Positions 30-51,207 of a stretch of 55,424 nucleotides of DNA are shown here, piece by piece. The stretch lies in assembly GCA_030019075.1 (NCBI GenBank), contig JASEHD010000001.1:1-55424 (forward strand). Reading direction: 5' to 3'. The position numbers and the translations under genes are program-made. Numbering within the stretch: position 1 is the first letter of the stretch; each line of letters starts with the position of its first letter. Under the pieces are notes generated by a model. The model made no database searches, was not told the origin of the DNA, and saw only the letters and a list, made by a program, of their open reading frames with translations. Origin of the DNA: Bacteroidota bacterium (GTDB taxonomy: Bacteria; Bacteroidota; Ignavibacteria; UBA10030; SZUA-254).

Positions 30-107
30 AATACAAACGCCGTTTCCCTAATTCTTCCAGCGTAGAAAGAATCAGACCTGCCCGACGGCAGGCGGGAAAA
101 CGGCGTT
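30..107 (-). terminator. Riboswitch expression-platform terminator hairpin, interrupted by a 20-nt insert at 77-96
   Basis: 36-56 pairs with 67-76 + 97-107 (21 bp including G-U on the minus strand), followed by a U-rich tail; loop CTACGCTGG is complementary to the aptamer 3' CCAGCGTAG. Confidence 0.75.
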
Positions 108-120
108 CAAGAAATATATT

Positions 121-208
121 TCCATTTTCCTACGCTGGTATTATCCAGATCAGGTATTTAGGGTTTTATCTCAGACCCGGTTTTCTCTCCGGGACACCCC
201 TAACGGAT
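121..208 (-). promoter_or_regulatory. TPP (THI-box) riboswitch aptamer
   Basis: Minus strand reads GGGGTG...CTGAGA..AACCC..ACCTGATCTGGATAATACCAGCGTAGGAA, the canonical TPP consensus. Confidence 0.95.
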
Positions 209-217
209 TACAGTTAA

Positions 218-246
218 AATATAATGTTTGTCTAACTTGGATGCAA
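218..246 (-). promoter_or_regulatory. sigma70-type promoter for the TPP leader
   Basis: TTGCAT-N17-TATATT on the minus strand just upstream of the aptamer. Confidence 0.65.
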
Positions 247-288
247 ATCCACGATTTGAATCATCAGAAATCTAAAGGAAAAAGAAAC

Positions 289-1800
289 GTTGCCTCATAT
301 AAGAATCTATATGAAAATTAATAAACTTAGGTTGTTATCCAACAAACATTACACGATTTGCTTGGCTATTAAGCAAATCAGGACATCCGTAAAGAATAAT
401 CTGACAAACCCACCAGAACGGCATTGTCGGGCTGGTATCAAAACAGGAGACAGCCATGAAACAATTAACTTTAAAGGAACGCAGAATTATGACTAAAGCA
501 TTTGCACGACGTTACCAGCAGGCAACGAAAAAACAAAAAACTCTTATCCTTGATCAATTCTGTTCAAGCACAGGATATGCACGAGCATATGCATCTTTTC
601 TTCTCCATAACTGGTGACGAAAAGTCAAACTTACCATCAGGGGTGTTAGAACAATATATGAGTTCGGTTGCCCAACAAAAAAACGCACCAGACGATATCG
701 TCCACGCAAATACGATGAGCGTGTCGACAGAGCTTTGAAACTCATCTGGTACATAGCCGATGGTATCTGTGGCAAACGACTTGCCCAATTCATTCGTGAT
801 ACCGTGCCTGTGCTCGAACGATTCGAAGAGATCACACTTGATGCCGATACTCGTTCTAAGTTGCTTACTATCAGTCCGGCAACAATTGATCGTCATCTCA
901 CTTCTGAACGGAAAAAGTCTCAGATAAAAGGTCGATCCACAACAAAACCGGGGACACTCCTAAAACACCACATCCCTATTCGCACATTCGCACAGTGGGA
1001 TGAACAAAAGCCAGGTTTTGTTGAAATCGACCTCGTATCGCACGAAGGTGGCTATTTTGAGGGTGATAATATCTACACCCTCGATGTTACTGATGTCTGT
1101 ACTACTTGGACTGAAACACGTGCCATAAAAAACAAAGCTCAAAAATGGGTCTTCGAAGCTCTCGAACAGATTATTACAAACCTTCCTTTCCCATTACGTG
1201 GCATCGATTCAGACAATGGTAGCGAGTTTATTAACAATCATCTCCTGCGGTACTGTCAACAACACAAACTCACTTTCACCCGCCACGGCGGGTTCACACG
1301 CAGTCGTGAGTATCGAAAAAACGATAACTGTTTTGTTGAACAAAAAAACTTCTCCATCGTTCGTAGAACTGTCGGCTATTACCGCTTCGACACCGACGAG
1401 GAACTCCAATTGATGAATAGCATTTACGATACCCTGCGGCTCTACACTAACTTCTTTTTACCTACTATGAAGCTCAAACAAAAAATTCGTACTGGCAGCC
1501 AAGTCAAACGTCTATATGACAAACCAGTTACTCCTTTTAAGCGTGTCCTCCAACACACGGCTGTCTCTAAGACACTCAAACAGAAACTTAGCATTCTATA
1601 TCCTACTTTAAATCCTGCTCAACTCAAACGGACACTCATTAAACTCCAAGATCGTTTGTTCTTTATCGCAGAATCAAAATCTAAACATAAACCGCTGAAC
1701 CGTAAACAATTATCATCGTTACCATATGACAAGCATTCTTCTTATATTTCTCATGCCTCTCACCCGGGGCCACTTCATCTAGAAATTTAAATGAGGCAAT
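289..1800 (+). mobile_element. Insertion sequence (DDE/integrase-core, ISNCY-like)
   Basis: Imperfect terminal IRs gttgcctcatataagaatcta (289-309) and tagaaatttaaatgaggcaat (1780-1800), 16/21 match, enclosing a transposase; exact ends uncertain. Confidence 0.7.
456..1790 (+). pseudogene. Integrase-core (rve/DDE) transposase with one in-frame TGA at 615-617
   Basis: ATG 456 (GGAG RBS) is in frame with ORF 735-1790; motifs EIDLVSH, GIDSDNGSEFIN, KNDNCFVEQKN; ...HNW*RKV... nonsense codon. Confidence 0.85.
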
Positions 1801-1847
1801 AAAATCCATTGTATCCAAAGACTTAATGTAAATAGAACTTTCTATGG

Positions 1848-29383: not shown

Positions 29384-29395
29384 AGCCAACCCGCC

Positions 29396-29780: not shown

Positions 29781-29802
29781 AGTACACATCCTTTTCCCAT
29801 TT

Positions 29803-30616: not shown

Positions 30617-30714
30617 GATGCTAAACGATTGCGTTCATAATAAAATCATCTCCAACTATTTATTATCAGATATGTTAATAACTGATATTACGCATGGGTA
30701 CCAAGATACACATT

Positions 30715-30866
30715 AATAGCCCCACGATTCCTGCCCGTCCGGCAGGCGGGTATCGTGGGGTTTAGTAGAATCCAAACAATAGCGGGGCTTCAGCCCACAA
30801 ATTATGAGGTTAAATCCCTCGCGGTTAAGTCTTTTGTATTTCCCCGAACTGAAGTTCAGAGATATT
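30715..30866. repeat. REPIN/MITE-like palindromic element with a 21-nt insert in its first loop
   Basis: aatagc-ccccacgat..atcgtgggg, gggcttcagccc, ccccgaactgaagttc..tatt; inverted ends. Confidence 0.7.
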
Positions 30867-31023
30867 GAGTGACAAAAGACTTCTATGAACATAACCAATC
30901 TTTGAATGAAACACAGTGTTTGCTCTCTGAACTCTGAGTCTCTGCGTTGAAAATAAAAAAAACGGGGTCGCGGAGTATCCTAATTGCACAAATAGATAAA
31001 ATCATGGTCTTATCTAAATCCAG

Positions 31024-31069
31024 ATATTAAAATTAATGCTTGAACTCCATCAAAAAAGTTAGTAAATTA
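31024..31069 (+). promoter_or_regulatory. 46-bp direct repeat copy 2 (promoter upstream of wzm)
   Basis: Matches 29735-29780. Confidence 0.8.
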
Positions 31070-31098
31070 TAGAGCCAATTTATAGTATTTTACGCTTT

Positions 31099-31156
31099 GT
31101 AGAACGAACTTCAGTTCGTTAAATATTTATCAAGAACGAAATAAATTTCGTTCTAC
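31099..31156. repeat. Inverted GTAG-REP pair (REPIN) in the wzm leader
   Basis: GTAG-aacgaact-tc-agttcgtt ... aacgaaat-aa-atttcgtt-CTAC. Confidence 0.8.
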
Positions 31157-31192
31157 ATTTTGGAATTGTAAAACTTAGATAGTCAAAACATA

Positions 31193-33636: not shown

Positions 33637-33679
33637 GTTGTATTCTTCATACTTTCTATTCTGAGAATAAAAGGATTAT

Positions 33680-35593: not shown

Positions 35594-35613
35594 GTTGTGA
35601 GTTGAGGTAAAGA

Positions 35614-36738
35614 ATGAAAATTTCGATACTAAGTTTCGATATGGGTCATAATTGCCTTGGGCGGGCATATCTTCTTGGGAAAGTCTTACAGCGACGCTAC
35701 GATGTCGAGATCCTCGGGACGCAATTCCCCTCGTTCGGTTCCACAATTTGGAAACCTTGCGATACCGGTGAGTTTAAATATTACACGGTCAAGGGTGGGA
35801 AATTCCCCGATTATTTTGGGTCGGTAAGGGACCTTCTTAAACATATTTCGGGCGATGTAATTTACGCATCTAAACTTCGCTTCTCAAGTTATGGGATTGG
35901 GTTTCTCAAGAAATTATTCTCATGGAAGCCGCTTGTTCTTGATATAGATGATCTCGAAACATCGTGGTATGTACCTGAAGAGTGGAAGAAAAGAAGAGCT
36001 TATTCATTTCGAGATCCAACAGGTTATCATCACACAAAATGGATTCAGAGGTTTAAATGGTTTGCAAATGAAATCACAACAGTTTCTACTCAGTTACAGG
36101 AACGATATGGTGGGATTATAATTCCCCATGGAAGGGACACTGATTATCTAGATCCTTCTAAACACGATGGTTATGATCTCCGCTGCAATTTAGGAATCGA
36201 GGAAAAGAAAATTATCATGTTCCTGGGTACTCCAAGACCTCATAAGGGTCTGGAGGATGTAATTCGTGCGCTCGCATTTATCAGAAGGTCAGATATACGT
36301 TTTATTATAGTTGGCAAGGATTCCGATCTAAGTTATGAACAGAAATTACGGGAGTTGGGAGGCGATAGAGTCATCCTCTTGGATCAGATACCCTTCACTG
36401 AGGTTCCACGATACCTGAGTATTGCTGATCTCGTTGTCATCCCCCAGAGGCGGCATGAACAATCGTCGGGGCAGATCCCGGCGAAAGTTTTTGATGCTAT
36501 GGCAATGGCGAAACCTATTATCGCAACAAACGTCTCCGATCTCCCGAATATTCTTGACGGATGCGGTATCGTTGTCGAGCCGGGAGACATCGAATCTCTT
36601 GCATATGAAATTGAGTGGGTGTTCTCTCATCCTAATGAAATACATGAACTTGGTGAAAAAGCACGTGCTAAGTGCATCGCTGAATATAGTTGGGATGTAA
36701 TGGAAGAGCGACTTAAAAATATCTTTGATCGATTATGA
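35614..36738 (+). CDS. GT4 glycosyltransferase
   Basis: FLGTPRPHKG, PAKVFDAMAMAKPII. Confidence 0.88.
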   Translation: MKISILSFDMGHNCLGRAYLLGKVLQRRYDVEILGTQFPSFGSTIWKPCDTGEFKYYTVKGGKFPDYFGSVRDLLKHISGDVIYASKLRFSSYGIGFLKKLFSWKPLVLDIDDLETSWYVPEEWKKRRAYSFRDPTGYHHTKWIQRFKWFANEITTVSTQLQERYGGIIIPHGRDTDYLDPSKHDGYDLRCNLGIEEKKIIMFLGTPRPHKGLEDVIRALAFIRRSDIRFIIVGKDSDLSYEQKLRELGGDRVILLDQIPFTEVPRYLSIADLVVIPQRRHEQSSGQIPAKVFDAMAMAKPIIATNVSDLPNILDGCGIVVEPGDIESLAYEIEWVFSHPNEIHELGEKARAKCIAEYSWDVMEERLKNIFDRL

Positions 36739-39700
36739 GTAACCGCAAGCACATATGTATTATCTCTCGAAGTCTTCCTTGGTACGACCGCGGTTCAGGA
36801 CACTTGCGATTCATTACTGCTATCGAGCTGATGCGAAAACACTTTGATGTTACTTTTGTTACGGAACGGTACTTCGAGGACGATGCCCATGCCGATTACC
36901 GATATGTTCAAGCTTTACAAAAACTTGGTGTCACCGTCTTGTTTAAAAATTTCAAACTCGAAAATGTTCTGCAAAACGATTTTGATGTAATAATATTCGA
37001 GTTTTTTGATACAGCTCTCCGCAACTTGGCATTCGTTAAGAAGATTCGTCCTGACCTTCCTGTGATTATTGATACTGTAGATGTTCATTTTGCACGTGAG
37101 CTTCAGATGGCAGAGGTGCTTAAGAGCGAAGATTTACTACGTAAAGCTTTGGAGACGAAAAGTAAGGAATTAAAGGTGTACGGGGATTCGGATGTTATTT
37201 GGACTGTGACGGATCATGATAGACAAATATTGCTGAAAGAGAATCCGCAGCTGTGTGTTAACGTTATACCAAATATCCATAAGCTAAAACCCATAAATAG
37301 AAACAATAACAACATAGAACGCAATACATTGCTGTTCATCGGGGGTTTCTGGCACCAACCTAACGAAGACGCTGTCTTATTTTTTCACGAGAAAATATTT
37401 CCCCATATAAGAAAGGAAATATCTGAGGCAAAACTTATCATTGTGGGTAATTCACCAACAGAAAAAGTGAAAGCACTAGCAAGCGAATCTGTGCAAGTTG
37501 TTGGTTGGGTTCCTGAAACGGAACCGTACTTGCAAAAAGCACACGTTTCAATAGTTCCCTTGCGTTATGGTGCGGGATTGAAAGGAAAAGTTGGTGAAGC
37601 GATGATGTCCGGTCTTCCAATAGTAACAACATCAGTTGGTATTCAGGGAATGGATGTTACTGATGGAGTGCATTTATTGGTTGCTGATGCACCAATTGAT
37701 TTTGCAAATAAAACAATCCAACTTCTCAAAGACGTTGAATTACAGAATGCATTATCGAAAAATGCTTATGACTATATTCGTACTCACTACACACCTGAAA
37801 TAGTAGAAGAAAAACTTCTTTTATCGATTGGGAAAGCAATAAACACACGCCAGCTCAGAGAAGAACAAATAAATGTCACAGAAAAAAGACAAGATCATGT
37901 ATTATCAATGGAGGACGGTTTACCATTTGTTTCGATTATCGTTCCAGTCTTCAATTCATCTTGCACTCTTGACCTATGTATACAAGCACTTTTAAATCAG
38001 AATTATCCGAAAAGTAATTATGAAATTATTATGGTAGATAATAACTCGACTGATGATTCTGTTGATATTATTAAAAAATACCCTGTTTCCCTTTATTTCG
38101 AAAAGAAAAAGCAAACATCATACGCAGCAAGGAACCAGGGCATTAAAAATTCAAAGGGAGAAATACTTTGTTTCACTGATTCTGATTGTATTACTGATAA
38201 TAACTGGATTGCAGAATTAGTAAAGTGTTTCTCCGAACCTAACATTGGAGGTATCGGTGGTCCTATCCTTGCCTATGAACCAACAACCCAAGTGGAAAAA
38301 TATATTGATGAGAATAGTTTAGTCACACATTCAAAAAAAACACATTTTCTTCCATTTGCCGCTACTGCAAATGCAGCTTACAGACGAATCATTTTTGAAG
38401 AGGCTGGTTTGTTTGAGGATAAATTTATAACGGGCAGTGATATGGAAATGTCTTGGAGGATGCAATCGAAAACACATTTCTCGATGGGTTTTACTGAAAA
38501 AGCGATCATTTTTCATAAACATAGAACAAATTTAAAAGATTTTACTTTCCAGAGAAGGCGAAATGGTCTAGCGAGCATCATACATGCCACTATGTTCGGT
38601 ATAAATAAAGAATATCCAAATGAGCGATATTCAAACAAATTCATTAAACAACGACTATCAACCGAGTTAAAGGGCTTTATTAAAAACTTTTTAAAAGTGA
38701 TTAGAATAATTATTTCGAAATGGAATCATAGTGAAGTAAATGAAAATATACTCATTCATCATATCGATAGATTAAGTTTTATCATGGGACAAATTGAAGG
38801 GATAATGAAGTATAGAATTCTTAAAATATTTTTCAGAATTCAACCTATTAAAGTAAATATAAGTCGTGTAGATGCTTTTAATGTTATGAAAGATTCAGTT
38901 AATTTAAATAAAATGAATTGGCAAACACGGGATATTGAAAATGATAAAACTAAGAACTTAGAATACAATAAAATGGTTGGAGAAGAAATAACAGAATATA
39001 AAAAAGTCCCAATCACAAAAGAATTGAAATTAGGTGGAATACATGATCAGGAAGCATGGCATTATTACTGGAGGCATGTAGATGCTAGGGTCAAAGAGCT
39101 GCTTGGGAATAAATATTGGTATCAGTTAGAGAGAAATGCTAATAGATTGAATTCCCCCAAGATCCTTAGTCTTGGTTGTGGGCACGGGGGATATGAAATT
39201 GCACTTGCAAAAAAATTACAATCGAATTATGAAATCATAGGGCTAGACTTAAATGAAGATATCTTAAAAAAGGCAGCAGAAATAGCTGATAAAAGTAAAT
39301 TAAATATAAAGTTTAATAAAGTAGATCTTAACTATATTAATCTCCCCAAAAATTATTTTGATATTGTTTATGCTCAAGCTTCTTTACATCATGTTATTAA
39401 TTTGGAACACTTATTTCATCAAGTATATGATGCGTTGAAAGACAAAGGTCAATTTTTCGTTGCCGATATAATCGGAAAAAATAGAGTGATATTGTGGGAT
39501 GAGAATTTGGAGTTTATTAATAAGATTATATTAGATATTCCAGAAAGTTATCGTAAAGATAAAGATGGTCGAATCGTTGAATTAATTAAGCTATATGCAA
39601 ATCCTGGTATGGAGGGTATACGTCAAGAGGAGATCCTCGGTCAACTATTGAAAATTTTTAGAAGTGAGTTTCTATATCTTCATAATGCATTTATTCGTTT

Positions 39701-39857
39701 TATCGCAACTCATCCAATTATAGGTGAAAATTTATCTGCTAATATTGAACAAAGTCAACAAATATTAAATCACCTAATAAGCGAAGATGATGATCAAATA
39801 GAAAAAGAGAAACTTCGCCCAACGGAAATGTTAGGAATTTTTAGAGTGAAAAAATAG
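36735..39857 (+). CDS. Multidomain GT4 + GT2 + SAM methyltransferase
   Basis: PLRYGAGLKGKVGEAM; SIIVPVFN..VDNNSTD..FTDSD; ILSLGCGHG..ASLHH. Confidence 0.88.
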   Translation: MSNRKHICIISRSLPWYDRGSGHLRFITAIELMRKHFDVTFVTERYFEDDAHADYRYVQALQKLGVTVLFKNFKLENVLQNDFDVIIFEFFDTALRNLAFVKKIRPDLPVIIDTVDVHFARELQMAEVLKSEDLLRKALETKSKELKVYGDSDVIWTVTDHDRQILLKENPQLCVNVIPNIHKLKPINRNNNNIERNTLLFIGGFWHQPNEDAVLFFHEKIFPHIRKEISEAKLIIVGNSPTEKVKALASESVQVVGWVPETEPYLQKAHVSIVPLRYGAGLKGKVGEAMMSGLPIVTTSVGIQGMDVTDGVHLLVADAPIDFANKTIQLLKDVELQNALSKNAYDYIRTHYTPEIVEEKLLLSIGKAINTRQLREEQINVTEKRQDHVLSMEDGLPFVSIIVPVFNSSCTLDLCIQALLNQNYPKSNYEIIMVDNNSTDDSVDIIKKYPVSLYFEKKKQTSYAARNQGIKNSKGEILCFTDSDCITDNNWIAELVKCFSEPNIGGIGGPILAYEPTTQVEKYIDENSLVTHSKKTHFLPFAATANAAYRRIIFEEAGLFEDKFITGSDMEMSWRMQSKTHFSMGFTEKAIIFHKHRTNLKDFTFQRRRNGLASIIHATMFGINKEYPNERYSNKFIKQRLSTELKGFIKNFLKVIRIIISKWNHSEVNENILIHHIDRLSFIMGQIEGIMKYRILKIFFRIQPIKVNISRVDAFNVMKDSVNLNKMNWQTRDIENDKTKNLEYNKMVGEEITEYKKVPITKELKLGGIHDQEAWHYYWRHVDARVKELLGNKYWYQLERNANRLNSPKILSLGCGHGGYEIALAKKLQSNYEIIGLDLNEDILKKAAEIADKSKLNIKFNKVDLNYINLPKNYFDIVYAQASLHHVINLEHLFHQVYDALKDKGQFFVADIIGKNRVILWDENLEFINKIILDIPESYRKDKDGRIVELIKLYANPGMEGIRQEEILGQLLKIFRSEFLYLHNAFIRFIATHPIIGENLSANIEQSQQILNHLISEDDDQIEKEKLRPTEMLGIFRVKK

Positions 39858-39864
39858 TAAAATA

Positions 39865-41643
39865 ATGCGGATTGTTGAGAGAAAATATTTTTGGGTCATT
39901 GTCTTCTTCTTTATCATTATCCTTTTTTCTTTAATTAAGGCGGATTCTATTTTCAATTATTCTGTTTTTGATATAGATGAAGAATACACTGTTAAATTTG
40001 CTGTAGGATTCTTAGGGTATGATTTTAATCCTCGATGGTTTGGGTACCATACATTACCGATGTATCTACTTTCTACCGTCTATTTTATTATATATGGTAT
40101 TTATTCTATTTTTAATATTGTTTCTTCGAAGGTCGAGTTTGTTTCTCTGCTGTTCGATGATAATGGTGTCTTTTTTATTAGTGCAAGGATTGTATGTAGT
40201 TTAATCTATACTATAGGGTGTTTCGTACTTTCGATAATCATTTATAAGTCTTATCGCTCAAAAATCGGAGCAATATTTTTTTTCTTGGTTGCTAATTTTA
40301 TCCCTGATGCTATTTATGCGTCGAACAATATTCGAGTTGATACTTTCGTTTTTCTTTTCTTGAGTCTAACTATTTATTTTAGTACATATGCAGAAAAAAA
40401 ACCAGCCAATTTTGTTCTATCGATTATTTTTTGTGCTGCGGCATTTGCTTCAAAGATACCGGCAATAGTATTTTATCCGATATTATTTTTACAAACATTG
40501 ATTGATGTAAGATCGAAGATTTATCCAAAAAAGTACCTTATATATATTATTGCTTTACTTCCAACTTTCACTTTCATCTTCATGCCGTTTGCTTTTTTAG
40601 ATTTTAATTCTTATCGTCCGATCATTGATCAGTTAACTAATAGAGCATCAGGAGAATTTATACATGTAGGTAAAGTACATTTTTTTGATCTCGTAAGCCG
40701 ACTTAATGCTCTTATAAATATAATTGTTAATCAGGTGGGTGTATTTTCAATTATTGGTATGTTTTTTTCATTTGTTTATTCGATTATTTATGATAGAAAA
40801 CTTATTCTGCCTTTTCTATACTGCATTCTTTATGTCGCATCTTTCACAACAAGTCTAACGATTGATCATTACTGGCTCAGGCCAATATATCCCTTCTTCA
40901 TATTTTTTACAATTGTTTTATTGACAAGGAAAGATATTCTTAATAAACTCAGTGTAAAATTTGATAGATATTCAGGAAGTAAAAATGTTAAGTATAAATT
41001 GATTGCATTCACCACTTTTGGGATATTTATTTTCTTTATTATTTACTATTCTTTAAGTTTATATGGAAATGTTTTACTATATTACAAACATTGGCCAAAA
41101 AATGAAAAAGATACTCGTGTTGAAGCGAACAATTGGATTCAGCAGAATTTTTCTACAAATGATAAAATATGGTTAGAGGGTCAAATCCCACACTATTTAC
41201 CGAAGGTTTTTTCTAATGATACAATTACTAATAGGATAATTCCCCTGGGTTTTTATCTAAAACAAAATCAAAATAAAATATTAGATGATGCTTTCGAATA
41301 CTATTGTTCACAATCGAAAACGAAGTACAAGATTTTGAATGTGAGATTAATTGGCAATCATGCTGCAAATCCGTTCACCGTTAATATTTTAGAGAGGGTA
41401 CAAAAAATCAAACCGGGTGATTATGTGGTAATATCAAGTTATATTTATTCTAGATATTATAAAACTAATACTATGCAACAGTTATCTCGTATAACTTATG
41501 ACGCGCAAAAATATTACGCATTTTTAAGAAAACAAGAACTTAAAAAATCTTTTAAGGGTAGTGGACCCAATATCGATATTTATCAAATACGTGATTCGCT
41601 TTCTACAATCATGGCAGACACATTGTATAATCATAAAATGTGA
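39865..41643 (+). CDS. GT-C (ArnT/PMT-like) membrane glycosyltransferase
   Basis: N-terminal DE motif (DIDEE), NPRWFGY, multiple TM helices; adjacent to a polyprenol-P GT2. Confidence 0.7.
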   Translation: MRIVERKYFWVIVFFFIIILFSLIKADSIFNYSVFDIDEEYTVKFAVGFLGYDFNPRWFGYHTLPMYLLSTVYFIIYGIYSIFNIVSSKVEFVSLLFDDNGVFFISARIVCSLIYTIGCFVLSIIIYKSYRSKIGAIFFFLVANFIPDAIYASNNIRVDTFVFLFLSLTIYFSTYAEKKPANFVLSIIFCAAAFASKIPAIVFYPILFLQTLIDVRSKIYPKKYLIYIIALLPTFTFIFMPFAFLDFNSYRPIIDQLTNRASGEFIHVGKVHFFDLVSRLNALINIIVNQVGVFSIIGMFFSFVYSIIYDRKLILPFLYCILYVASFTTSLTIDHYWLRPIYPFFIFFTIVLLTRKDILNKLSVKFDRYSGSKNVKYKLIAFTTFGIFIFFIIYYSLSLYGNVLLYYKHWPKNEKDTRVEANNWIQQNFSTNDKIWLEGQIPHYLPKVFSNDTITNRIIPLGFYLKQNQNKILDDAFEYYCSQSKTKYKILNVRLIGNHAANPFTVNILERVQKIKPGDYVVISSYIYSRYYKTNTMQQLSRITYDAQKYYAFLRKQELKKSFKGSGPNIDIYQIRDSLSTIMADTLYNHKM

Positions 41644-42561
41644 GTGTATAATATGTTATCAGTAGTTATTCCCGTTTATAATAGTGAATCGACTCTTTCA
41701 GAATTGTACAATCGGTTACAGCCAATTCTTCTTAATGTAAAAGAAGAATCCGAAATCATCTTTGTTGATGATGCGAGTCGGGATAATTCATGGAAGGTCC
41801 TTGAAGAATTGCACAAGCAAGACACGAGGGTAAAAATAATTCAGCTTATGCGCAACTTCGGTCAGCATAATGCCATCATGTGCGGATTCCACTATGCTCA
41901 GGGTGAGTATGTCATCACTATGGATGATGATCTTCAGAACCCACCCGAAGAAATCCCGAAACTCATTAGAAAAATAGATGAAGGATATGATTTGGTATAT
42001 GGAGAATATATCACAAAGCACCATGGAGGTATTCGCAATCTTGGTTCTGGCATTATTCAATTTATCTACAAGAAAGTTTTCAAGATGCATTCAAATATAA
42101 CAGCATTTAGGATCATCAGGAAAAAATTAGTTGAATGTGTAATAAAGCATGATAGGAGTTATGTTTTTCTTGATGGATTGCTCGCCTGGAATACAATTAA
42201 TATCGGGACAATTCCCGTAATGCATAACGCTAGAATTTCCGGTAAATCGGGATACGGTTTTTCCAAGCTACTTACTCTTGCTATGAATATGATTACGAAT
42301 TTTTCTATATTACCACTCCAGTTTGCGACCTGGTTTGGATTCAGTTTTGCGATTATTGGTTTCATATTAGCCGTATACTTTCTTTTTAAAAAGATTTTTT
42401 TAGGTATCCCAGTGGAAGGATTTACTGCTCTGATTGTCGCTGTGACAATTTTTTCCGGGATGCAATTGATTACCGTAGGTTTAATAGGAGAATACCTGGG
42501 ACGAATTCATATAAATATTAATGCAAAACCCCAGTACGAAATAAGGGAAATTATTGAATGA
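41644..42561 (+). CDS. Polyprenol-phosphate glycosyltransferase (ArnC/GtrB-like GT2)
   Basis: RNFGQHNA, MDDDLQNPPEEI, two C-terminal TM helices, GEYLGRI. Confidence 0.9.
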   Translation: MYNMLSVVIPVYNSESTLSELYNRLQPILLNVKEESEIIFVDDASRDNSWKVLEELHKQDTRVKIIQLMRNFGQHNAIMCGFHYAQGEYVITMDDDLQNPPEEIPKLIRKIDEGYDLVYGEYITKHHGGIRNLGSGIIQFIYKKVFKMHSNITAFRIIRKKLVECVIKHDRSYVFLDGLLAWNTINIGTIPVMHNARISGKSGYGFSKLLTLAMNMITNFSILPLQFATWFGFSFAIIGFILAVYFLFKKIFLGIPVEGFTALIVAVTIFSGMQLITVGLIGEYLGRIHININAKPQYEIREIIE

Positions 42562-43409
42562 ATCTAAAACAACTGTTAAGAGGAAATAGATATGTCCCTC
42601 TACAAAATCATAAAATGAATATTTTAAATCCAGTGGCCGAGATAACAATTCATCCTCGTGTATTAATTGGTGAGAATGTTACTATTGGGAAAAATACCAA
42701 AAAGGTCGATATCGGCTACGGTACTTTTCTGGGGAACAATATTTATATTGATACTCCGGAACTCTCCATCGGTGAGTACACAACCATTCATCACTCTACA
42801 ACAATTCATGGATATGAGAATATAAAAATAGGACATAATTGCTGGTTTGGACAATTTTGTATAATCGATGGAATTGGTGGTACAACAATCGGAAATAATG
42901 TCGGTGTTGGTGCACATTCACAACTTTGGTCACACATGAAATTCGGCGACATGACAGCTGGATGCAAATGGCATAATACGAAGAACCTTATTATTAAAGA
43001 TGATGTTTGGTTTGTAGGTCATTGTATTGTGTGTCCAATTACTGCTGAAGAAAAAGCGATGTTAATGGTCGGGGGTGTTGTATCGCAGGATATGAAGGCG
43101 AATCATATTTATGGAGGTGTACCCGCAAAAGATTTAACAGATAGAATTGGAACACAATTCAAAGAAGATATTACGATTCAAGAAAAGTTGGAAATATTTA
43201 ATAATTATTTACGCGAGTATGAGAAAATGGGAAATAACGTATCGTTTGTACGCATTAAGGATACCGAAGCTGCAAGTTACGTTCCTAGGAAACATACTCT
43301 GTTTTCAATTTCAGATCGGTCATATGTTCCGACGCGTTCGGAGGAAGAGTACCGTCTAATGAAATTTTTATTATATGAAAAAGCTAAGTTTATTCCAGTT
43401 AATAAATAA
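42558..43409 (+). CDS. Hexapeptide-repeat (LbH) acyltransferase
   Basis: IGxxxx repeats, YGGVPAK. Confidence 0.8.
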   Translation: MNLKQLLRGNRYVPLQNHKMNILNPVAEITIHPRVLIGENVTIGKNTKKVDIGYGTFLGNNIYIDTPELSIGEYTTIHHSTTIHGYENIKIGHNCWFGQFCIIDGIGGTTIGNNVGVGAHSQLWSHMKFGDMTAGCKWHNTKNLIIKDDVWFVGHCIVCPITAEEKAMLMVGGVVSQDMKANHIYGGVPAKDLTDRIGTQFKEDITIQEKLEIFNNYLREYEKMGNNVSFVRIKDTEAASYVPRKHTLFSISDRSYVPTRSEEEYRLMKFLLYEKAKFIPVNK

Positions 43410-43429
43410 AATTCAGTTTGTGATTTTTT

Positions 43430-44572
43430 ATGATTAAAATTCCATTCAATCGTCCATCAATCATAGGTAAAGAATTAGAGTACATTGCACAAGCGGTACA
43501 AGGCGGGCAAATCTCTGGCGACGGGCTATTCACAAAAAAATGCCACGCTTTGATTGAAGAAAAGTTCGGTGCTAAGAAAGTTCTCCTAACAACATCGTGT
43601 ACCTCGGGACTTGAGATGTCTGCTCTGCTTTGTAACATACAATCCGGGGACGAGGTTATTCTGCCATCGTTCACGTTTGTCTCAACGGCAAATGCCTTTT
43701 GTCTTAGGGGAGCTAAACCTATCTTTGTGGATATCGAACAAAAAACACTTAATATCAATCCTGATTTAATAGAAGCGAAAATCACAAATAAGACAAAAGC
43801 TATTGTTCCAATTCATTATGCAGGTGTTAGCTGTGATATGGATATAGTTATGGATATTGGGAGGAAGTATAAGATTCCTGTAATCGAAGATGCAGCTCAG
43901 GGTGTGAATGCAAAATATAAGGATCAATATCTAGGTACAATTGGACAGCTCGGCGCTTATTCCTTCCATGAGACTAAGAATTTCATCTCCGGGGAAGGTG
44001 GTGCTCTTGTCATTAACGACGAGCAGTACATCGAGCGTGCCGAGATTGTCCGTGAGAAGGGTACCAACCGAAGCAAGTTCTGGCGTGGTCAGGTGGATAA
44101 ATATACATGGGTGGATATAGGATCGTCGTATCTACCTTCAGATATCTTAGCGGCTTACCTTTACGCGCAGTTAGAGTCGATGGAACAGATCACAGCTGTA
44201 CGCAGAAAAATCTACAAGTATTATCTTAAAAAATTATCACCGCTCGAAGAGCGCGGGCTGCTCCGGCTTCCCCGCATACCCTCTTGGTGTCAGCCAAACT
44301 ATCACATGTTTTACATTCTTCTACAAACGCAGAAGATGCGAGATGGGCTGATGAAGACACTGAAAGATAACGGTATCATGGCAGTGTTCCATTATCTCCC
44401 ACTGCATACGTCTCCGATGGGGAAGAAATTCGGTTACAAAGAGGGAGAATTTCCCGTGACGGAAGATGTAAGCAAGCGGCTGTTGCGTCTTCCATTCTAT
44501 AATGATTTAACTGAGAGTGATCAGGAACGGATTGTTACGATAATAAATAATTTTGTTTCAGAAATTTCTTGA
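43430..44572 (+). CDS. rffA: dTDP-4-amino-4,6-dideoxygalactose transaminase
   Basis: IPFNRP, EDAAQG, SFHETKN, EKGTNRSKF.RGQVDKYTWVDIGSSYL. Confidence 0.92.
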   Translation: MIKIPFNRPSIIGKELEYIAQAVQGGQISGDGLFTKKCHALIEEKFGAKKVLLTTSCTSGLEMSALLCNIQSGDEVILPSFTFVSTANAFCLRGAKPIFVDIEQKTLNINPDLIEAKITNKTKAIVPIHYAGVSCDMDIVMDIGRKYKIPVIEDAAQGVNAKYKDQYLGTIGQLGAYSFHETKNFISGEGGALVINDEQYIERAEIVREKGTNRSKFWRGQVDKYTWVDIGSSYLPSDILAAYLYAQLESMEQITAVRRKIYKYYLKKLSPLEERGLLRLPRIPSWCQPNYHMFYILLQTQKMRDGLMKTLKDNGIMAVFHYLPLHTSPMGKKFGYKEGEFPVTEDVSKRLLRLPFYNDLTESDQERIVTIINNFVSEIS

Positions 44573-44587
44573 TAAATCAAACGTTCT

Positions 44588-45316
44588 ATGTACAATAAAG
44601 AGTCTTGGAAACCGAGTAAATTTCAAAAAGATGCCAACTCCGGTGGATACATTCCGAATCCTTCATACGTTGGTGTTGGTTCCCGTTATGTATGCCAGCT
44701 CTACATAAACGATTATGTGAAACTTATACAGGAACATTGTTCTGGCTATCTGCTCGATTGCGGTTGCGGTGATGTACCGTATTACGAAATCTATCGAGAT
44801 AAAATCTCGGATGTTTATTGCATCGATTGGGAAAACTCACTCCACAAAAATCCCTACGTCGATCAGTGCGTAGATCTGAACAATCCGTTTCCGCTTGAAA
44901 GCAATTCATTCGATACTGTCCTCGCTGCGGATGTCCTTGAGCACATCTACAACCCTATGCTTTTTATGAATGAGGTCGCCCGTGTTGTTAAGCCCGGTGG
45001 CAAAGTTCTCATCATGGTTCCATATTACTACTGGGTCCATGAAGCACCGCACGATTATTATCGCTATACCGAGTATGCACTGAAAAAATTCTGTGATGTA
45101 AATAAACTCAACGTCGTATATCTTCAGCCCTACGGCGGTTATCCAGACATTCTCCTTGATTTGTTCAATAAAAAATATGTAACAAAAGAAACAGGCGTCC
45201 GGAGATTCTTAAAATTCAGCCGTTGGCTCCAGTCGACGAAATATTATAAAAATCTTTGCCAATCAACTGAACGACAATTCCCGCTTGGTTATTGTCTCGT
45301 TGCCCAAAAACCGTAG
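44588..45316 (+). CDS. Class I SAM methyltransferase
   Basis: LLDCGCGDVPY, DVLEH, PHDYYRYT. Confidence 0.88.
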   Translation: MYNKESWKPSKFQKDANSGGYIPNPSYVGVGSRYVCQLYINDYVKLIQEHCSGYLLDCGCGDVPYYEIYRDKISDVYCIDWENSLHKNPYVDQCVDLNNPFPLESNSFDTVLAADVLEHIYNPMLFMNEVARVVKPGGKVLIMVPYYYWVHEAPHDYYRYTEYALKKFCDVNKLNVVYLQPYGGYPDILLDLFNKKYVTKETGVRRFLKFSRWLQSTKYYKNLCQSTERQFPLGYCLVAQKP

Positions 45317-45368
45317 CTGTGGATTTCCCCGCTCATTGTAGTAAAATAACCGGCTTGAGAAGATAGAG

Positions 45369-45701
45369 ATGATGGAAGATAAGTTATTTCAAAATAAAAT
45401 AGATAAGGGTGGTTATAAAATCCATCGTGAAATGAAAGCGATGTGTTATCACGGGCACACGTACACCGTTAGTGAACTCGTGAAACGTTGTACAAATGAA
45501 GGTCTTGGCTGGAGATTGGTTGAGCAGAGATATTCGTTCACAGAAATGGTAAGAGATTTATTCAGTTTTAAAATTTACCGTCAATTACTTAATGGTATAA
45601 AGAATAATCAGATCAAGCATATTTCAGAATTGATGTTTCCTACCATCCGTCCATTGTTCGTATATATTGGGAATCGTTTTATTAAGCGGTATGTCAGGTA
45701 G
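45369..45701 (+). pseudogene. Short ORF, possible remnant of a methyltransferase-like gene
   Basis: 110 aa, operon-oriented, no recognisable catalytic core, ends next to the REP cluster. Confidence 0.35.
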
Positions 45702-45725
45702 CTACAGCGTGGAAACAAACCTGAT

Positions 45726-45921
45726 GTAGTCGCGGACTTTTTTATCCGCCTCCCGCCAAAAAAGGCGGCGGGCAAGCTGGCGGAATGTCTGCGTGGTTGC
45801 CAAATACGCAACCTACAAAAGATGCCTGTCGTAGCCGCAAGCTTAATGCTTGCGGGAGTCGCCTCCACACGCAACCATGAAGTCGTTGTCCTGAGGACTC
45901 AGTCCGAAGGATTGCGGCTAC
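45726..45921. repeat. Third copy of the RAYT-1 REP block
   Basis: GTAG REPs at 45726 and 45831, inverted unit ending CTAC at 45921. Confidence 0.9.
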
Positions 45922-45979
45922 ATTCAGATAACACCCACGACTTGTAAAAGTGATAATCAATTCCTACATTTGGCTTGTT

Positions 45980-46942
45980 ATGGAACGTACAACATCAGAA
46001 AAATTAATTTTCATCATCATCCCAGCTTACAACACGGCTCACCTCATCGGTCGTTCCATAACGAGCGTGCTCTTGCAAACCTATCAACATTTCGAGGTCA
46101 TCATTGTCGATGACGGTTCAACCGATAATCTCAACTATGCACTGGCTCGGTTCAAGGATAATCGTATTCGATCCATCCGTCACGAAGCAAACCGGGGCGG
46201 CTCGGCTGCCCGCAATACCGGCATCAACGCTGCAAGGGGTGAATACATCGCCTTCCTTGATAGCGATGATGAATGGCTGCCGGAGAAATTGGAGAAACAA
46301 ATTGAAGTATTCCGAAAATCTTCAAATGATGTTGGAATGGTATACACCGGCTGGCGCTGGATAAGAGAAAAGGATGGTAAAATAATTCAGGATAAAATTC
46401 CTGCTCAGCGCGGTAACCTTCATCAATTGTTACTGAGCATCGATTGCATTGGCTCAATGTCAACGCCATTAATAAGGACATCTCTTTTGCATGCCATCGG
46501 TGGCTTTGATGAGAAACTCCCCGCCCGGCAAGATTGGGATTTATGGCTGCGACTTTCAAAAGTTTGCAGATTTGATTTTGTTCCCGAAGTTTTAGTCAAT
46601 TACTATGTCCGTACGGAAAGTATATCGGGCAATACTTTGAATAAGATCAAAGGTACTGAGATTGTACTTGAAAAATATCTTGATGAATTCAAATCATTGC
46701 CATCAGCGCTTGCCGGTAATTACATCGTGCTAACGATTCTTTATCTGATCGATGGTGATGTTACCAAAGCACGTGAGATGATGAGGAAATCAATTCAAAG
46801 TGATTCACGTAACTGGAAGATGTACTGGAAGAATCTTGTACACGTTACACTCTCTTTTCTGCCAAGAGCCGTTCGTATTAAATTTTTTAAGGTGATGCGG
46901 TTGATGAATAAAGATTTTTATTGGATAGTAACTCAAAAGTAG
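45980..46942 (+). CDS. GT2 glycosyltransferase
   Basis: IIIPAYN, VDDGSTD, GGSAARNTG, FLDSDD, QDWDLWLR. Confidence 0.92.
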   Translation: MERTTSEKLIFIIIPAYNTAHLIGRSITSVLLQTYQHFEVIIVDDGSTDNLNYALARFKDNRIRSIRHEANRGGSAARNTGINAARGEYIAFLDSDDEWLPEKLEKQIEVFRKSSNDVGMVYTGWRWIREKDGKIIQDKIPAQRGNLHQLLLSIDCIGSMSTPLIRTSLLHAIGGFDEKLPARQDWDLWLRLSKVCRFDFVPEVLVNYYVRTESISGNTLNKIKGTEIVLEKYLDEFKSLPSALAGNYIVLTILYLIDGDVTKAREMMRKSIQSDSRNWKMYWKNLVHVTLSFLPRAVRIKFFKVMRLMNKDFYWIVTQK

Positions 46943-47773: not shown

Positions 47774-48073
47774 AGGTCAGCAGTAGAACTGCTTCCCAGC
47801 ATGGCGACTAAGAAGTCAGCAGTAGACCAGCCCAACCCGCCTGCGGCAGGCAGGCATCTTAGCTGACGGGACTGCCTCATAGCTTTCTTAGCTGGGAGGA
47901 TGTTCTACATCCGACCTTTGGTGTCAGGAAGGTCAACTTTCAGCAGTCCTTAGCTGGGAGGGGGTTCACACCTCCGACCTGTTCGGCGGCGAGGGTCAGC
48001 AGTAGACCAGCCCGACACCAGCCCGACCCGCCTGCGGCAGGCAGGCATCTTGGCTGGCGGGACTGCTTCCCAG
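47774..48073. repeat. REP family 2 array upstream of RAYT-2
   Basis: AGGTC-stem6-AGA-stem6-TCCCAGC units: 47774 (+), 47813 (+, filled), 47891 (-), 47953 (-), 47993 (+, filled). Confidence 0.85.
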
Positions 48074-48152: not shown

Positions 48153-48698
48153 ATGTCACACTGGAAATTTATATCTGGAACAGAAGACCAATTATATTTT
48201 CTAACATCAAGCATTGTTGATTGGACATATATTTTTACCGAACCTGATTATTTCGAAATTATAATCGAAAGCTTAAAACACTGTCAGCAGCACAAATCGC
48301 TCATCATTGCTGGATACGTCATAATGCCAAATCATCTTCATCTTATCTGTGTTGGATCGAAGGAAGATAAACTTGTTGATACCATGCGTGATTTTAAACA
48401 TTACACAGCCTGTAAAATACTTGACAATTTGCATTTAGGTCAACGATGGAAGGAATTAGAAATTTTCCATAGGGCAGCAATCGAGGAAGGTAAAGGAAAT
48501 GAACAGAGGTTTTGGAATGAAGGTATGCATCCAATTTTGGTTTCCAATGAAAAAATGTTTCAAGAAAAATTAAATTACATGCACAATAATCCGGTTAGAA
48601 AAGGATTTGTTGCTGCACCAGAGCATTGGTTATATTCAAGTGCGAGGAATTATATCCTCGGAGATCATTCGATTATGAAGATTGAATGTTATAATTAA
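48153..48698 (+). CDS. REP-associated tyrosine transposase (RAYT-2, Bacteroidota type)
   Basis: YFLTSSIVDW, YVIMPNHLHLI, MRDFK, YMHNNPVRKG, WLYSSARNY. Confidence 0.92.
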   Translation: MSHWKFISGTEDQLYFLTSSIVDWTYIFTEPDYFEIIIESLKHCQQHKSLIIAGYVIMPNHLHLICVGSKEDKLVDTMRDFKHYTACKILDNLHLGQRWKELEIFHRAAIEEGKGNEQRFWNEGMHPILVSNEKMFQEKLNYMHNNPVRKGFVAAPEHWLYSSARNYILGDHSIMKIECYN

Positions 48699-48939: not shown

Positions 48940-48951
48940 GTGTCGTATCCT

Positions 48952-49398
48952 ATGATTCGTTTTACAAAAATAACGCACAACGTTCGAGAGCTATTTCCAA
49001 AACTTCTTGAATATTTTTCGACTCGTCAGGATGTGGAGTTTGCATATCTCTTTGGTTCATACGGTATCGGTTACGAAACTCCAATGAGCGATGTAGATAT
49101 TGCTGTGTATCTTATGAGCGAAGTACCAAAGGATAAATATTTCGACATACGGTTAAGGATCATTCAAGATGCTACGGAAATTCTCCATACAGATGAAGTT
49201 GATTTGAGTATTTTAAATGACGCTGATCAACTCTTCGCTTTCAACATTATTTCTACAAGTACAATTTTGTATGATCGTAATCCCGTATTGCGTATCGATT
49301 ATGAAGTCAGAATAATTGATCGATATTTGGATTTTGATCCATACAGGCAGATTCAGGATAATGCTTATCTTAATAATTTGATTCTGAGATCGGAATGA
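48952..49398 (+). CDS. MNT antitoxin (MntA-like)
   Basis: AYLFGSY..SDVDIAV. Confidence 0.9.
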   Translation: MIRFTKITHNVRELFPKLLEYFSTRQDVEFAYLFGSYGIGYETPMSDVDIAVYLMSEVPKDKYFDIRLRIIQDATEILHTDEVDLSILNDADQLFAFNIISTSTILYDRNPVLRIDYEVRIIDRYLDFDPYRQIQDNAYLNNLILRSE

Positions 49399-49823
49399 TG
49401 AAACGCGAATCAATAGTTGCGAAACTTCAGAAACTTGATGAAACGATCAAATCACTGGAACAATTAAAATCACATTCAAGGGGAAAAATTCTTGATGATT
49501 ATTTATTGCAAGCCGCATTAGAGCGGAATCTGCAAATTGCATCACAAGTTGTGCTTGATATCGGAAATAGTATTTTAGCTGAACGCGGCATTAGAGGGAT
49601 TCATGAATACAAAGATATTATTATCCGTTTAGGTTCGGAAGGGATCATACCAAAGGAGTTTTCCGAAAAGATTTTTCCAATAGCAGGTTTAAGGAATTTA
49701 TTAGTGCACAATTATCTTGAGATCGATCCTAACCGCCTTGTAGATATTTTATTTAATGATCTTGATGATCTCAAAAAATATATGAAAATTATTGCAACTT
49801 ACCTCAATAATCAATTAAAATAA
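49395..49823 (+). CDS. HEPN (DUF86/HepT-like) toxin
   Basis: ALERNLQ, GLRNLLVHNY (Rx4H). Confidence 0.9.
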   Translation: MMKRESIVAKLQKLDETIKSLEQLKSHSRGKILDDYLLQAALERNLQIASQVVLDIGNSILAERGIRGIHEYKDIIIRLGSEGIIPKEFSEKIFPIAGLRNLLVHNYLEIDPNRLVDILFNDLDDLKKYMKIIATYLNNQLK

Positions 49824-49841
49824 TCATTGATCGAAGTTTAA

Positions 49842-50846
49842 ATGAAAAAAGCACTCATAACAGGAATTACAGGTCAGGACGGCTCGTATCTCGCAGAGCT
49901 TTTACTGAATAAAGGATACGAAGTTCATGGAATAATGCGACGTGCAAGCACTTTTAACACGGGTCGCATCAATCATCTCTACACCGATCCGCATGTCAAT
50001 GGTGTAAAATTCTTTTTGCATTATGGCGACATAAGCGATTCAACCAATCTCATTAAGCTCCTTTACAATCTTAAGCCGGATGAAGTGTATCATCTCGCTG
50101 CTCAAAGTCATGTGCGTGTAAGTTTTGATATCCCGGAATATACAGGAGATGTATCAGGAATTGGTACAGTTAGAATATTAGAAGCGATCCGGGAGACTGG
50201 TATCAAGACTAAATTCTATCAAGCTTCAAGCAGTGAAATGTTTGGAATGGTAAGGGAGATTCCTCAGAAAGAGACAACTCCGTTTTATCCGAGAAGTCCA
50301 TATGGCTGCTCAAAAGTATATGCTTATTGGATAACTGTGAATTATCGGGAATCGTATAATATATTTGCATGCAACGGTATTCTTTTTAATCATGAATCAC
50401 CGCGTCGTGGGGAAACGTTTGTTACGAGAAAAATAACTCGTGCACTTGCCCACATCAAAGCTGGGATTCAAGATTCTCTCTATCTCGGGAATTTGGATGC
50501 AAAGCGCGACTGGGGTTATGCAAAAGAATTCGTGGAAGCAATGTGGCTTATGATGCAACAAGATATACCGGATGACTACGTAATAGCAACAGGTGAAACA
50601 CATACCGTGAGGGAGTTTCTTGAAGAAGCTTTTTCGTATGCGGGTTTAGATTGGAAAAAATATGTGAAGATTGATCGTCGATATTTCCGCCCTGCTGAAG
50701 TTGACGTACTTATCGGAGATGCAAGCAAAGCGAAACAGAAACTTGGCTGGCAGCCGAAGACAACATTTAAACAATTAGTGCGATTGATGGTTGACGCTGA
50801 TATTGAATTGCTGAATAAAGAACGTCATCTGAATATCAAAGTTTAA
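49842..50846 (+). CDS. gmd: GDP-mannose 4,6-dehydratase
   Basis: [40 protein letters not shown]. Confidence 0.97.
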
Positions 50847-50859
50847 ATAGACGTCACCT

Positions 50860-50887
50860 GTCACGTTGAGCGCAAGTCGAAACGTGA
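50860..50887. repeat. GTCA..TGAGCG.AGTCGAA-type palindrome; partner copy inverted at 51122-51176
   Basis: gtcacgttgagcgcaagtcgaaacgtga and gtcttagac[..]tgcgctcagacagac flank the GIY-YIG remnant. Confidence 0.6.
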
Positions 50888-50918
50888 TATTGGTTAGAAC
50901 TTAGCTGAATGCGGGGTA

Positions 50919-51121
50919 ATGAAAAGAGCCTGGGTGTACATACTCGAATGTTCCGATGGTTCTTATTATACTGGATGCACCACAAATATTGAGAAGAGAA
51001 TATCGGAGCATCAGTTAGGTGTATACAATGGATATACTTCAATGAGAGATTTGATTTACTCCATGAATTTGCGCAGTCGAAGGAGATGATAGAAAGGCGG
51101 GAAAAAAGAGATGCAAAGTAA
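50919..51121 (+). pseudogene. GIY-YIG nuclease (UPF0213-like) with internal deletion and frameshift
   Basis: MKRAWVYILECSDGSYYTGCTTNIEKRISEH...YTSMR, then FDLLHEFAQ...DAK* in another frame; the central A..E..IK segment is missing. Confidence 0.8.
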
Positions 51122-51207
51122 GTCTTAGACTTCGTTCATCCCGTCTGCCGACGGGATTCACTGCGCTCAGACAGACAGTGCGTTTTATTAATAAAATTGA
51201 TAATCAT

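Follow-up and report, generated by a model that had tools for sequence, protein, structure and literature searches.

REP-like micro-palindromes inserted into hairpin loops, and into one another, in an Ignavibacteria-like bacterium

We have studied a group of very small hairpin-forming DNA units that interrupt other hairpins, and each other, in the genome of an Ignavibacteria-like bacterium. The stretch at issue, here called the window, comprises the opening 55,424 bases of contig C111 in a draft genome (G000) of 3.18 Mb, 226 contigs and 39.5% G+C; the comparison set was 31 related genomes, with G001 as the relative of the same genus. Metagenome-assembled genomes of Ignavibacteriaceae and Melioribacteraceae are among the best named matches to its enolase, hence the description as Ignavibacteria-like. 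A reading made from the sequence alone had proposed that hairpins of this kind are elements smaller than MITEs (miniature inverted-repeat transposable elements) or the doublets of repetitive extragenic palindromes (REPs) known as REPINs. Our analysis supports discrete units of such a size. The families X, Y, Z and W and a sister form of X, defined below, are self-contained hairpin-forming units that occur as exact insertions without target duplication, and they lie preferentially in unpaired loops. These loops belong to REPs, to MITE hairpins, to the terminator of a riboswitch and to dead tRNA fragments, in which the D, anticodon and T loops are all used. The units are probably genuine mobile insertions. 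On balance we favour the view that the window samples a guild of REP-like micro-palindromes common to an order of Ignavibacteria-like bacteria, and perhaps moved in trans by chemistry of the HUH Y1 type.

Family X is the class of hairpins with a CGGG tail (class A of the four originally proposed), redefined by its ends as CCTGCCCG..loop..CAGGCGGG. With exact ends there are 33 copies in the genome, 19-43 nt in total length, and none of the reversed motif used as a control. The commonest lengths are 30 nt (nine copies), 19 nt (eight) and 21 nt (five). The pattern is found in 20 of the 31 related genomes and its backwards counterpart in 0 of 31; the ends are kept across an order of bacteria, and the loops vary. 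As read directly from the sequence, the ends permit two hairpin registers, CCTGCC/GGCAGG or CCCGCC/GGCGGG, and the sister form carries a compensatory T/A swap, CCAGCC..GGCTGG+CGGG. Neighbouring copies of X are in direct orientation (contigs C28, C183 and C188) or nested (C22), and the remainder are singlets. Counted strictly across the genome, the four classes number 7 (A), 3 (core of B), 4 (C) and 1+1 (D). Since these counts are low, classes B, C and D are not genome-wide families.

Family Y, with the form TNNGCC-NNN-GGCNNA in which the NN are paired, is only 15 nt long. It has 72 copies in the genome, compared with 0 in the shuffled genome and 0 for the reversed format, in eight stem variants and including 12 adjacent dimers of 30 nt. 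The commonest form, TCCGCC-NNN-GGCGGA, occurs in 30 of the 31 relatives at 1-112 copies each (controls 0-1). Y has no constant flank, and the TTTA tag seen in class B does not extend to its copies generally.

The evidence for insertion comes from the comparison of filled and empty sites, at paralogous and orthologous loci, in assembled genomes. Clean insertions with empty alleles, as the sequence-only reading had claimed, were found in a riboswitch terminator, a MITE, two kinds of REP unit and a transposase gene. The first of these lies beside a thiamine pyrophosphate (TPP) riboswitch.

77-96, plus strand: X, 20 nt, CCTGCC-CGAC-GGCAGG-CGGG, within the large loop of the stem-loop following the TPP riboswitch (itself on the minus strand)
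110-211, minus strand: TPP riboswitch aptamer, host context of this X (Rfam RF00059, 74.2 bits; gathering score 54.3)

This X is present in G000 only, one of nine aligned orthologues, and the other eight, including G001, are uninterrupted at CAGA|AAAAC. The minus strand of 36-108 is predicted to fold at -22.5 kcal/mol, with a z of -5.87. The gene under control of the riboswitch runs off the contig start. The G001 locus (C27:10056-10301) is without the X of 77-96 but has a different 30-nt hairpin insert of its own inside the TPP aptamer.

The second example is a MITE, each of whose two hairpins is found in both states.

30682-30861, plus strand: decayed MITE with left terminal repeat CTGATATTACGCA (59 terminal-repeat matches genome-wide; fold z -4.54)
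30720-30760, plus strand: first hairpin of the MITE, CCCCACGAT..ATCGTGGGG, with X inside (30730-30750)
30842-30859, plus strand: second hairpin of the MITE, CCCCGAAC-TGAA-GTTCAG, empty in the window

Three copies of the first hairpin, CCCCACGAT-TT-ATCGTGGGG, are empty, and four contain an X of 20-21 nt exactly between the two T (T|T). The junction CCCCGAACT|TCAGTTCGGGG of the second hairpin holds a 19-nt X in C171, C183 and C188, and is empty in C213 and in the window. The terminal repeat of this host family of MITEs and insertion sequences (IS), CTGATGTTACGCA, has 59 matches in the genome; the family probably breaks the assembly, with many contigs ending in it. It is the only true MITE here.

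The REP units of the window surround two genes for REP-associated tyrosine transposases (RAYTs). REP1 flanks RAYT1 and REP2 flanks RAYT2, and only REP1 carries a GTAG tag.

28869-29348, minus strand: RAYT1, amid REP1 arrays (Pfam Y1_Tnp 44.7 bits; NCBIfam NF047646 98.4 bits, cut-off 80)
48153-48698, plus strand: RAYT2 (NCBIfam NF047646 105.2 bits, cut-off 80; Pfam Y1_Tnp below cut-off)
28478-28570, plus strand: GTAG-tagged REP1 hairpin whose loop contains a nest of three levels (nest 1; nested fold -20.6 kcal/mol)
28493-28557, plus strand: TTTA+TCCGC..GGCGGA unit of nest 1, holding W and Z
28502-28522, plus strand: W of nest 1, a 21-mer
28525-28549, plus strand: Z of nest 1, CCCGCC-AAAAAAGGC-GGCGGG-CAAG
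29396-29488, plus strand: REP1 nest 2 (outer unit 29415-29475, W 29420-29440, Z 29443-29467)
45726-45797, plus strand: REP1 nest 3, without W and thus an empty allele for it (outer unit 45745-45784, Z 45752-45776)
28656-28683, plus strand: V unit (class C), CGATG+TCCTGAGGA-TTCAG-TCCGAAGGA, in the second hairpin of a REP1 unit; second tandem copy at 28760-28787
29575-29602 and 45884-45911, plus strand: further copies of V, CG(A/T)TG+TCCTGAGGA..TCCGAAGGA

The REP1 loop exists in several states. In G001 it is plain TTTAT or TTTAC in some copies, and in others TTT[TTTA-TCCGCC-TCT-GGCGGA]ATG, i.e., with a unit of 19 nt. Compared with these, the window loops (TTT|ATG) have a further 25-nt CCCGCC-AAAAAAGGC-GGCGGG-CAAG within the loop of the 19-nt unit, and two of the three copies also contain the 21-mer. 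The TTTA+TCCGC..GGCGGA motif of class B starts at 28493, 29411 and 45741. The empty form of V, GCAAC-TATAAAA-GTTGC-GCTAC, is found at 28848-28869, and both empty and filled forms are present in G001. V was matched in four of the 31 genomes, lying in REP1-type units in G000, G001 and G016 and in an unrelated context in G012; on the opposite strand it reads as a GTAG-tagged imperfect hairpin. On these sequences V may be no independent insert but a subtype of REP, although it does have empty forms. The TTTA+TCCGCC and CG(A/T)TG classes are present where they had been placed but are not dispersed, their three and four copies all lying in the window and all in the REP units of one RAYT.

REP2 provides the fourth set of sites, at the junction GGTCAGCAGTAGA|ACTGCTTCCCAG.

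47775-47799, plus strand: REP2 hairpin, empty, GGTCAGCAGT-AGA-ACTGCTTCCCAG (the empty partner of 48007-48061 in the unbiased scan described below)
47815-47883, plus strand: REP2 with a decayed CCAGCC..+CGGG hairpin (47827-47870) after AGA, and within it a reverse-oriented 19-nt X-like element (47836-47854)
47994-48073, plus strand: REP2 with a CCAGCC-CGA..CATCT-GGCTGG-CGGG hairpin (48018-48061) and an inner reverse X-like 19-mer (48027-48045); a partial duplicate (48007-48017) lies ahead

The junction is empty in the first of these and filled in the other two. For 47994-48073 the predicted fold has three nested stems (-19.4 kcal/mol, z -2.56), and C168:14267 presents an intermediate state, REP2 with a 24-nt hairpin from which the inner insert is absent. 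All sequences cited by the earlier reading were found at their positions, including the hairpins with CGGG at 77-96, 30730-30750, 47827-47870 and 48018-48061 and the inner reverse copies.

Insertions are also seen within conserved genes. In the enolase gene the conserved ELRD.D and KKRYNGKGV are separated by an in-frame X of 36 nt (DLPANQVPGGQAG). Two of 29 aligned relatives, G000 and G011, have the insert, at the identical position, with differences mostly at synonymous positions. In a tree calculated with the insert left out, G000 pairs with the empty G001 (support 100/97) and G011 is placed elsewhere. Because the filled G000 groups with an empty relative and apart from G011, the pattern calls for no fewer than two events, either two gains or one gain together with a precise loss. 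Orthologous sites in enolase and in the TPP terminator are thus occupied in an all-or-none manner, where gradual change had been named as the outcome that would speak against insertion. Among tails for the type IX secretion system (T9SS) with the SGVYFY motif, a 30-nt Y dimer (SSKGGYASG) is present in 8 of 76 matched rows, and two of those eight tails, which are paralogous, hold in addition a 21-nt X, a different one in each, at the same spot in opposite orientations. Copies of X lying well inside long open reading frames (ORFs) all have lengths divisible by three (6 of 6, against 13 of 27 elsewhere), and no copy of 19 or 20 nt is found in such ORFs.

Two hairpins of the window had been grouped as a hairpin+TTCA class.

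1279-1296, plus strand: 18-nt GC hairpin, CCCGCC-AC-GGCGGG+TTCA, placed in frame within a DDE (rve) transposase gene, with TTCAC on both sides (single occurrence in the genome)
51138-51160, plus strand: isolated hairpin ATCCCGTC-TGCC-GACGGGAT+TCA (single occurrence in the genome; fold z -4.02)

The first adds six residues, RHGGFT, relative to the closest homologue (G031, 54% identity), and the other six of seven homologues align with a four-residue gap. For the second, no empty or paralogous site was found in the genome, and there is therefore no evidence of insertion. The class dissolves into two unrelated singletons. The transposase frame (456-1790) has an in-frame TGA near 614, and is the only copy in the genome.

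There was also an unbiased scan, in which any 12+12 nt genome junction was sought elsewhere split by 10-70 nt, local and tandem cases being removed. Fifty inserts of 45 nt or less were left. Of these, 21 fold at -7 kcal/mol or better, compared with 4.6% of length-matched random genomic segments, and nearly all of the 21 are X, Y-type or related GC hairpins. The weakly folding, AT-rich events with a single partner are probably chance matches. For the hairpin inserts the junction ambiguity is just 0-1 nt, and it follows that there is no target duplication, as had been noted for most of the sites.

The preference for hairpins, also suggested earlier, is borne out in several ways. A perfect host stem of at least 5 bp (loop of 10 nt or less) encloses 13 of 27 X sites with distinct flanks, compared with 7.1% of 20,000 random positions, although the independence of these sites is limited since several of the hosts belong to repeat families. 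Fragments of tRNA genes carry inserts in their loops. On C172 two tandem GIY-YIG elements each leave a decayed 5′ half of tRNA-Ser, and the D loop of these halves carries two different Y-type inserts, with the anticodon loop likewise interrupted; no insert is present in the intact tRNA-Ser(cga) downstream. On C204 the T loop of tRNA 3′ fragments that follow GIY-YIG genes is interrupted, at GGTTC|GAATCC, by a Y dimer. These fragments are free of selection for tRNA function and yet the inserts are in loops, from which we infer targeting by structure and not only the survival of tolerated insertions. The units also enter one another: X lies in X (C22), the CCAGCC type in X (C164), Y in X (C171 and G008) and W in X (G004), in addition to the nests of the window. 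Nesting reaches three levels, and the predicted single-strand folds give the expected nested stems.

Other repeats accompany the units. Arrays of the heptamer GGATTTC/GAAATCC (C98:808, C162:16087, C188:7537, C171:48390 and C122:24295) repeatedly host X, some of them in secretion-tail coding sequence. A dispersed hairpin, CACCCTTCGACAAGCTCAGGGTG, has 17 copies in G000, one of which has a 25-nt insert in its loop (C165:21946). At C15:1567-4206 there are 56-nt composites, X inside another small hairpin, that are 95% alike, inverted and 2.5 kb apart, in ORFs flanking a histidine kinase/response regulator pair. We considered that this inverted pair might form the ends of a larger element, and rejected the idea; the flanks are an ordinary two-component system and the pair lies inside ORFs.

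Could the units be artefacts of assembly, or adapters? The same motifs recur in 20-30 independently assembled genomes, and on this ground an artefact, which the sequence-only reading had named as a possible refutation, is rejected. Most sites of the window are without an orthologue in G001, because in 26001-46000 only the RAYT1 locus and a few genes could be aligned. Besides the riboswitch, the DDE transposase gene and the two Y1 proteins, the window holds a polysaccharide-synthesis region and two nucleotidyltransferase/HepT (MNT-HEPN) toxin-antitoxin-like pairs (29803-30616 and 48940-49823).

What moves these units? The chemistry of the HUH Y1 enzymes seems to fit their anatomy best. According to the available text of Messing et al. 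(2012, PMC3479197), HUH Y1 enzymes and RAYTs recognize a hairpin with a 5′ tetranucleotide, and on single-stranded DNA carry out both cleavage and strand transfer, leaving the target unduplicated. On such a scheme DNA that became single-stranded would fold, leaving the loops as single-stranded targets, and an enzyme acting in trans, specific for single-stranded DNA hairpins, would cut and join in the loops without staggered cleavage. Candidates would be HUH Y1 transposases (IS200/IS605 TnpA or RAYT). Precise loss would be possible, and stems could afterwards stay paired through compensatory change. The genome matches Pfam Y1_Tnp at nine places (E up to 0.01), most of which have small hairpin repeats of their own in the flanks. 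As mobilizer, a RAYT or another Y1 enzyme is a tentative proposal, somewhat less likely than not.

A number of observations weigh against the scheme. Near the RAYTs of the window X is found only as an insert in other elements, and the flanks retrieved with RAYT/Y1 loci of relatives contain no X; the flanks of five RAYT2 orthologues hold a different REP, of the CTGGGAGG-hairpin-CGACC type in these relatives. Neither X nor Y has the GTAG tag, and X has no fixed target word, although the base at -1 is a purine at 24 of 27 sites. Counts of X do correlate, weakly, with matches to the RAYT model (Spearman 0.49, p 0.005), but the presence table of 18/6/2/5 gives a Fisher value of 0.067, and both ignore kinship; for Pfam Y1 matches the association is weaker (rho 0.39, Fisher 0.32, kinship again ignored). 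Genome G016, which is 99% complete in 10 contigs, has four X and 17 Y (TCCGCC-NNN-GGCGGA) and no Y1/RAYT match, and neither G020 (six X) nor G027 (34 Y) has a match to the RAYT model. G016 is a natural test case for an origin independent of RAYTs. When RAYT2 was considered as the mobilizer of X across the 31 genomes, 13 had both, seven X only, five a RAYT2-like gene only and six neither, showing no clear link. Independent events must be far fewer than copies, since many copies ride inside larger repeats; the loop preference could partly mirror which insertions are tolerated; and classes B and C, confined to one REP family, could be REP subtypes.

Mobilization by the window RAYTs, offered as a possibility in the earlier reading, is not established. 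Two further associations were rejected as candidates. The clusters of X in G010 and G003, considered as possible flanks of a RAYT, proved to be copies of X inside another dispersed repeat, and in G006, where X is 600 nt from a weak RAYT-like match, another ORF lies between and the context is a short tandem repeat.

A bolder form of the proposal, which we regard as doubtful, is that these could be the smallest mobile DNA units yet seen, single hairpins of 15-39 nt that transpose by structure into any hairpin loop, including each other and three tRNA loops, by means of an enzyme other than the neighbouring RAYTs; this last element is included because genomes without any Y1 match still carry the units. 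If true, transposition would have a new, 'loop-hopping' mode, and one that generates short peptide inserts in frame.

The units may be mobile but moved by some other nuclease or recombinase specific for single strands or structure, for example the small GIY-YIG proteins beside the tRNA fragments or an unrecognized enzyme. We consider this unlikely. The presence of X and Y in G016 without a Y1/RAYT match, the 34 Y in G027 without a RAYT-model match and the fact that X is never the REP flanking a RAYT would all be accommodated, as would the Y dimers in tRNA fragments made by tandem GIY-YIG elements. However, the 72 copies of Y are in diverse contexts, most of them without a GIY-YIG gene nearby, and no candidate gene emerged. 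The homing enzymes of the GIY-YIG type act by cutting double-stranded DNA and are not known to insert short hairpins, which counts against a mobilizer of this kind. The GIY-YIG genes concerned are small and arranged in tandem at C172:9250-10050, where each regenerates the 5′ half of tRNA-Ser(cga), and at C204:450-980, where each ends in a tRNA 3′ fragment; they look like a tRNA-targeting GIY-YIG mobile element. A frameshifted GIY-YIG remnant lies in the window, at about 50928-51090.

It is less probable still that the hairpins were not transposed at all, having reached stalled replication sites as copies of other hairpin loci, through template switching or gene conversion, so that the filled and empty patterns reflect recombination among repeats. 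Many filled/empty pairs do lie among larger repeat families (MITE copies, REP units and T9SS tails). Quasi-palindrome correction yields perfect stems with compensatory differences, and such stems are present here. But the inserts at unique sites, in enolase, the TPP terminator and the transposase gene, have no repeat homology around them; the junctions have microhomology of just 0-1 nt; and the ends are constant over an order of bacteria with variable loops. Finally, that the hairpins are motifs selected by the host (terminators, RNA stabilizers or protein-binding sites), shared by selection and inheritance, is very improbable, for although one copy extends a riboswitch terminator, the enolase inserts of G000 and G011 differ mostly at synonymous positions and REPs elsewhere are credited with such roles (the available text of PMC3733652), copies lie in dead tRNA fragments, inside other repeats and, in frame, in functionally unrelated proteins, related genomes have anything from 0 to 112 copies, and presence at orthologous sites is patchy.

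Returning to mobile units moved by Y1-type chemistry, the present sites convert a vague model of spread into testable substrates: X and Y oligonucleotides, a hairpin-loop target and candidate Y1 enzymes. The units supply conserved proteins (enolase and secretion tails) with small in-frame inserts, and they alter riboswitch terminators. For annotators, inserts of 15-39 nt in genes and tRNA-like sequences of these metagenome-assembled genomes are real and not assembly errors.

How do the units compare with known systems? The statement in the sequence-only reading that no formal description was known is too strong. Tagged REPs of 20-40 bp, with an unpaired GTAG or CGTC tag, have been described, some of them placed in small palindromes and others in genes (Di Nocera, De Gregorio, Rocco, 2013, PMC3733652, in the text available). 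The present units share with them the short GC-rich palindrome, a terminal 4-nt tag left unpaired, loops that vary within families and an uneven copy number among relatives, and the CGTC REPs are said in that text to be without a dedicated transposase, a further likeness. They differ in that the tags are neither GTAG nor CGTC (X has CCTG/CGGG and Y none), and they extend the range in size (down to 15 nt), in three-level nesting and in loop-centred insertion with empty sites, including tRNA-fragment loops. We did not meet an Ignavibacteria-like lineage in the available text of PMC3733652, whose supplementary lists might hold related Chlorobi/Bacteroidetes families. X, with 33 copies, has the size and copy number of a REP, and Y, at 15 nt and 72 copies, is below the usual size; both lack a GTAG/CGTC tag and cognate copies flanking a RAYT (the REPtron arrangement).

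Like RAYT-REP systems and REPINs, the window has two bona fide RAYTs with flanking REP arrays, and the chemistry proposed above, cleavage and strand transfer on a single-stranded hairpin plus tetranucleotide, is that described in the accessible part of Messing et al. (2012, PMC3479197). In REPINs, as far as the text available states, the doublet and not the singlet is the mobile unit (Bertels and Rainey, 2011, PMC3116915), and such a doublet is a pair of inverted REPs that form one long hairpin. X and Y, by contrast, mostly occur singly rather than as inverted pairs, are not the repeats flanking RAYT genes, and occur in some genomes without a RAYT match. IS200/IS605 elements transpose as single-stranded DNA with hairpin ends, no target duplication and precise excision (PMC3479197, available text); they carry two different subterminal hairpins and choose sites 3′ of a fixed word of 4-5 nt, unlike X and Y, with a single hairpin and no fixed target word. 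MITEs are recognized by terminal inverted repeats that match an IS and by a target-site duplication, and X and Y, with a junction ambiguity of 0-1 nt, lack such a duplication.

Parallels further afield are looser. Elhai and colleagues are said to have argued in 2008 that repeats of 21-27 nt in Nostoc, inserted in each other and in other repeats, are mobile; these belong to another phylum and have other sequences, and the present set adds a unit of only 15 nt, insertions in frame within conserved genes, and empty sites at orthologous positions. Rickettsia palindromic elements, which are about 100-150 nt long and specific to Rickettsia, are inserted in frame into protein-coding genes and tolerated there; the habit is the same, with inserts here of 15-39 nt. 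Mitochondrial GC clusters and double-hairpin elements are very small GC-rich hairpins that spread in AT-rich genomes and at times enter genes. Y dimers, at 30 nt, are double hairpins in the literal sense, but the setting there is organellar and the resemblance is an analogy only. The palindromes of Lobosphaera mitochondria, judged from a partial source, are not a close parallel.

A search of the literature for Ignavibacteria REPs and nested palindromic insertions found no earlier account of these elements in the titles and opening lines of abstracts that it covered. They behave like REPs, yet are set apart from REPs by their tags and the absence of RAYT flanking, and likewise from REPINs, MITEs and derivatives of IS200/IS605. 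The integration step of REP-type palindromes was left unsettled in the available texts of the REPIN and RAYT papers (PMC3116915, PMC3479197), and the exact boundaries and exact empty sites found here at many places point to landing in hairpin loops and joining without duplication. From the sequences compared, what would appear to go beyond the literature found is the 15-nt unit, nesting to three levels, loop-centred empty sites that include three tRNA loops, in-frame inserts in enolase, and conservation across an order.

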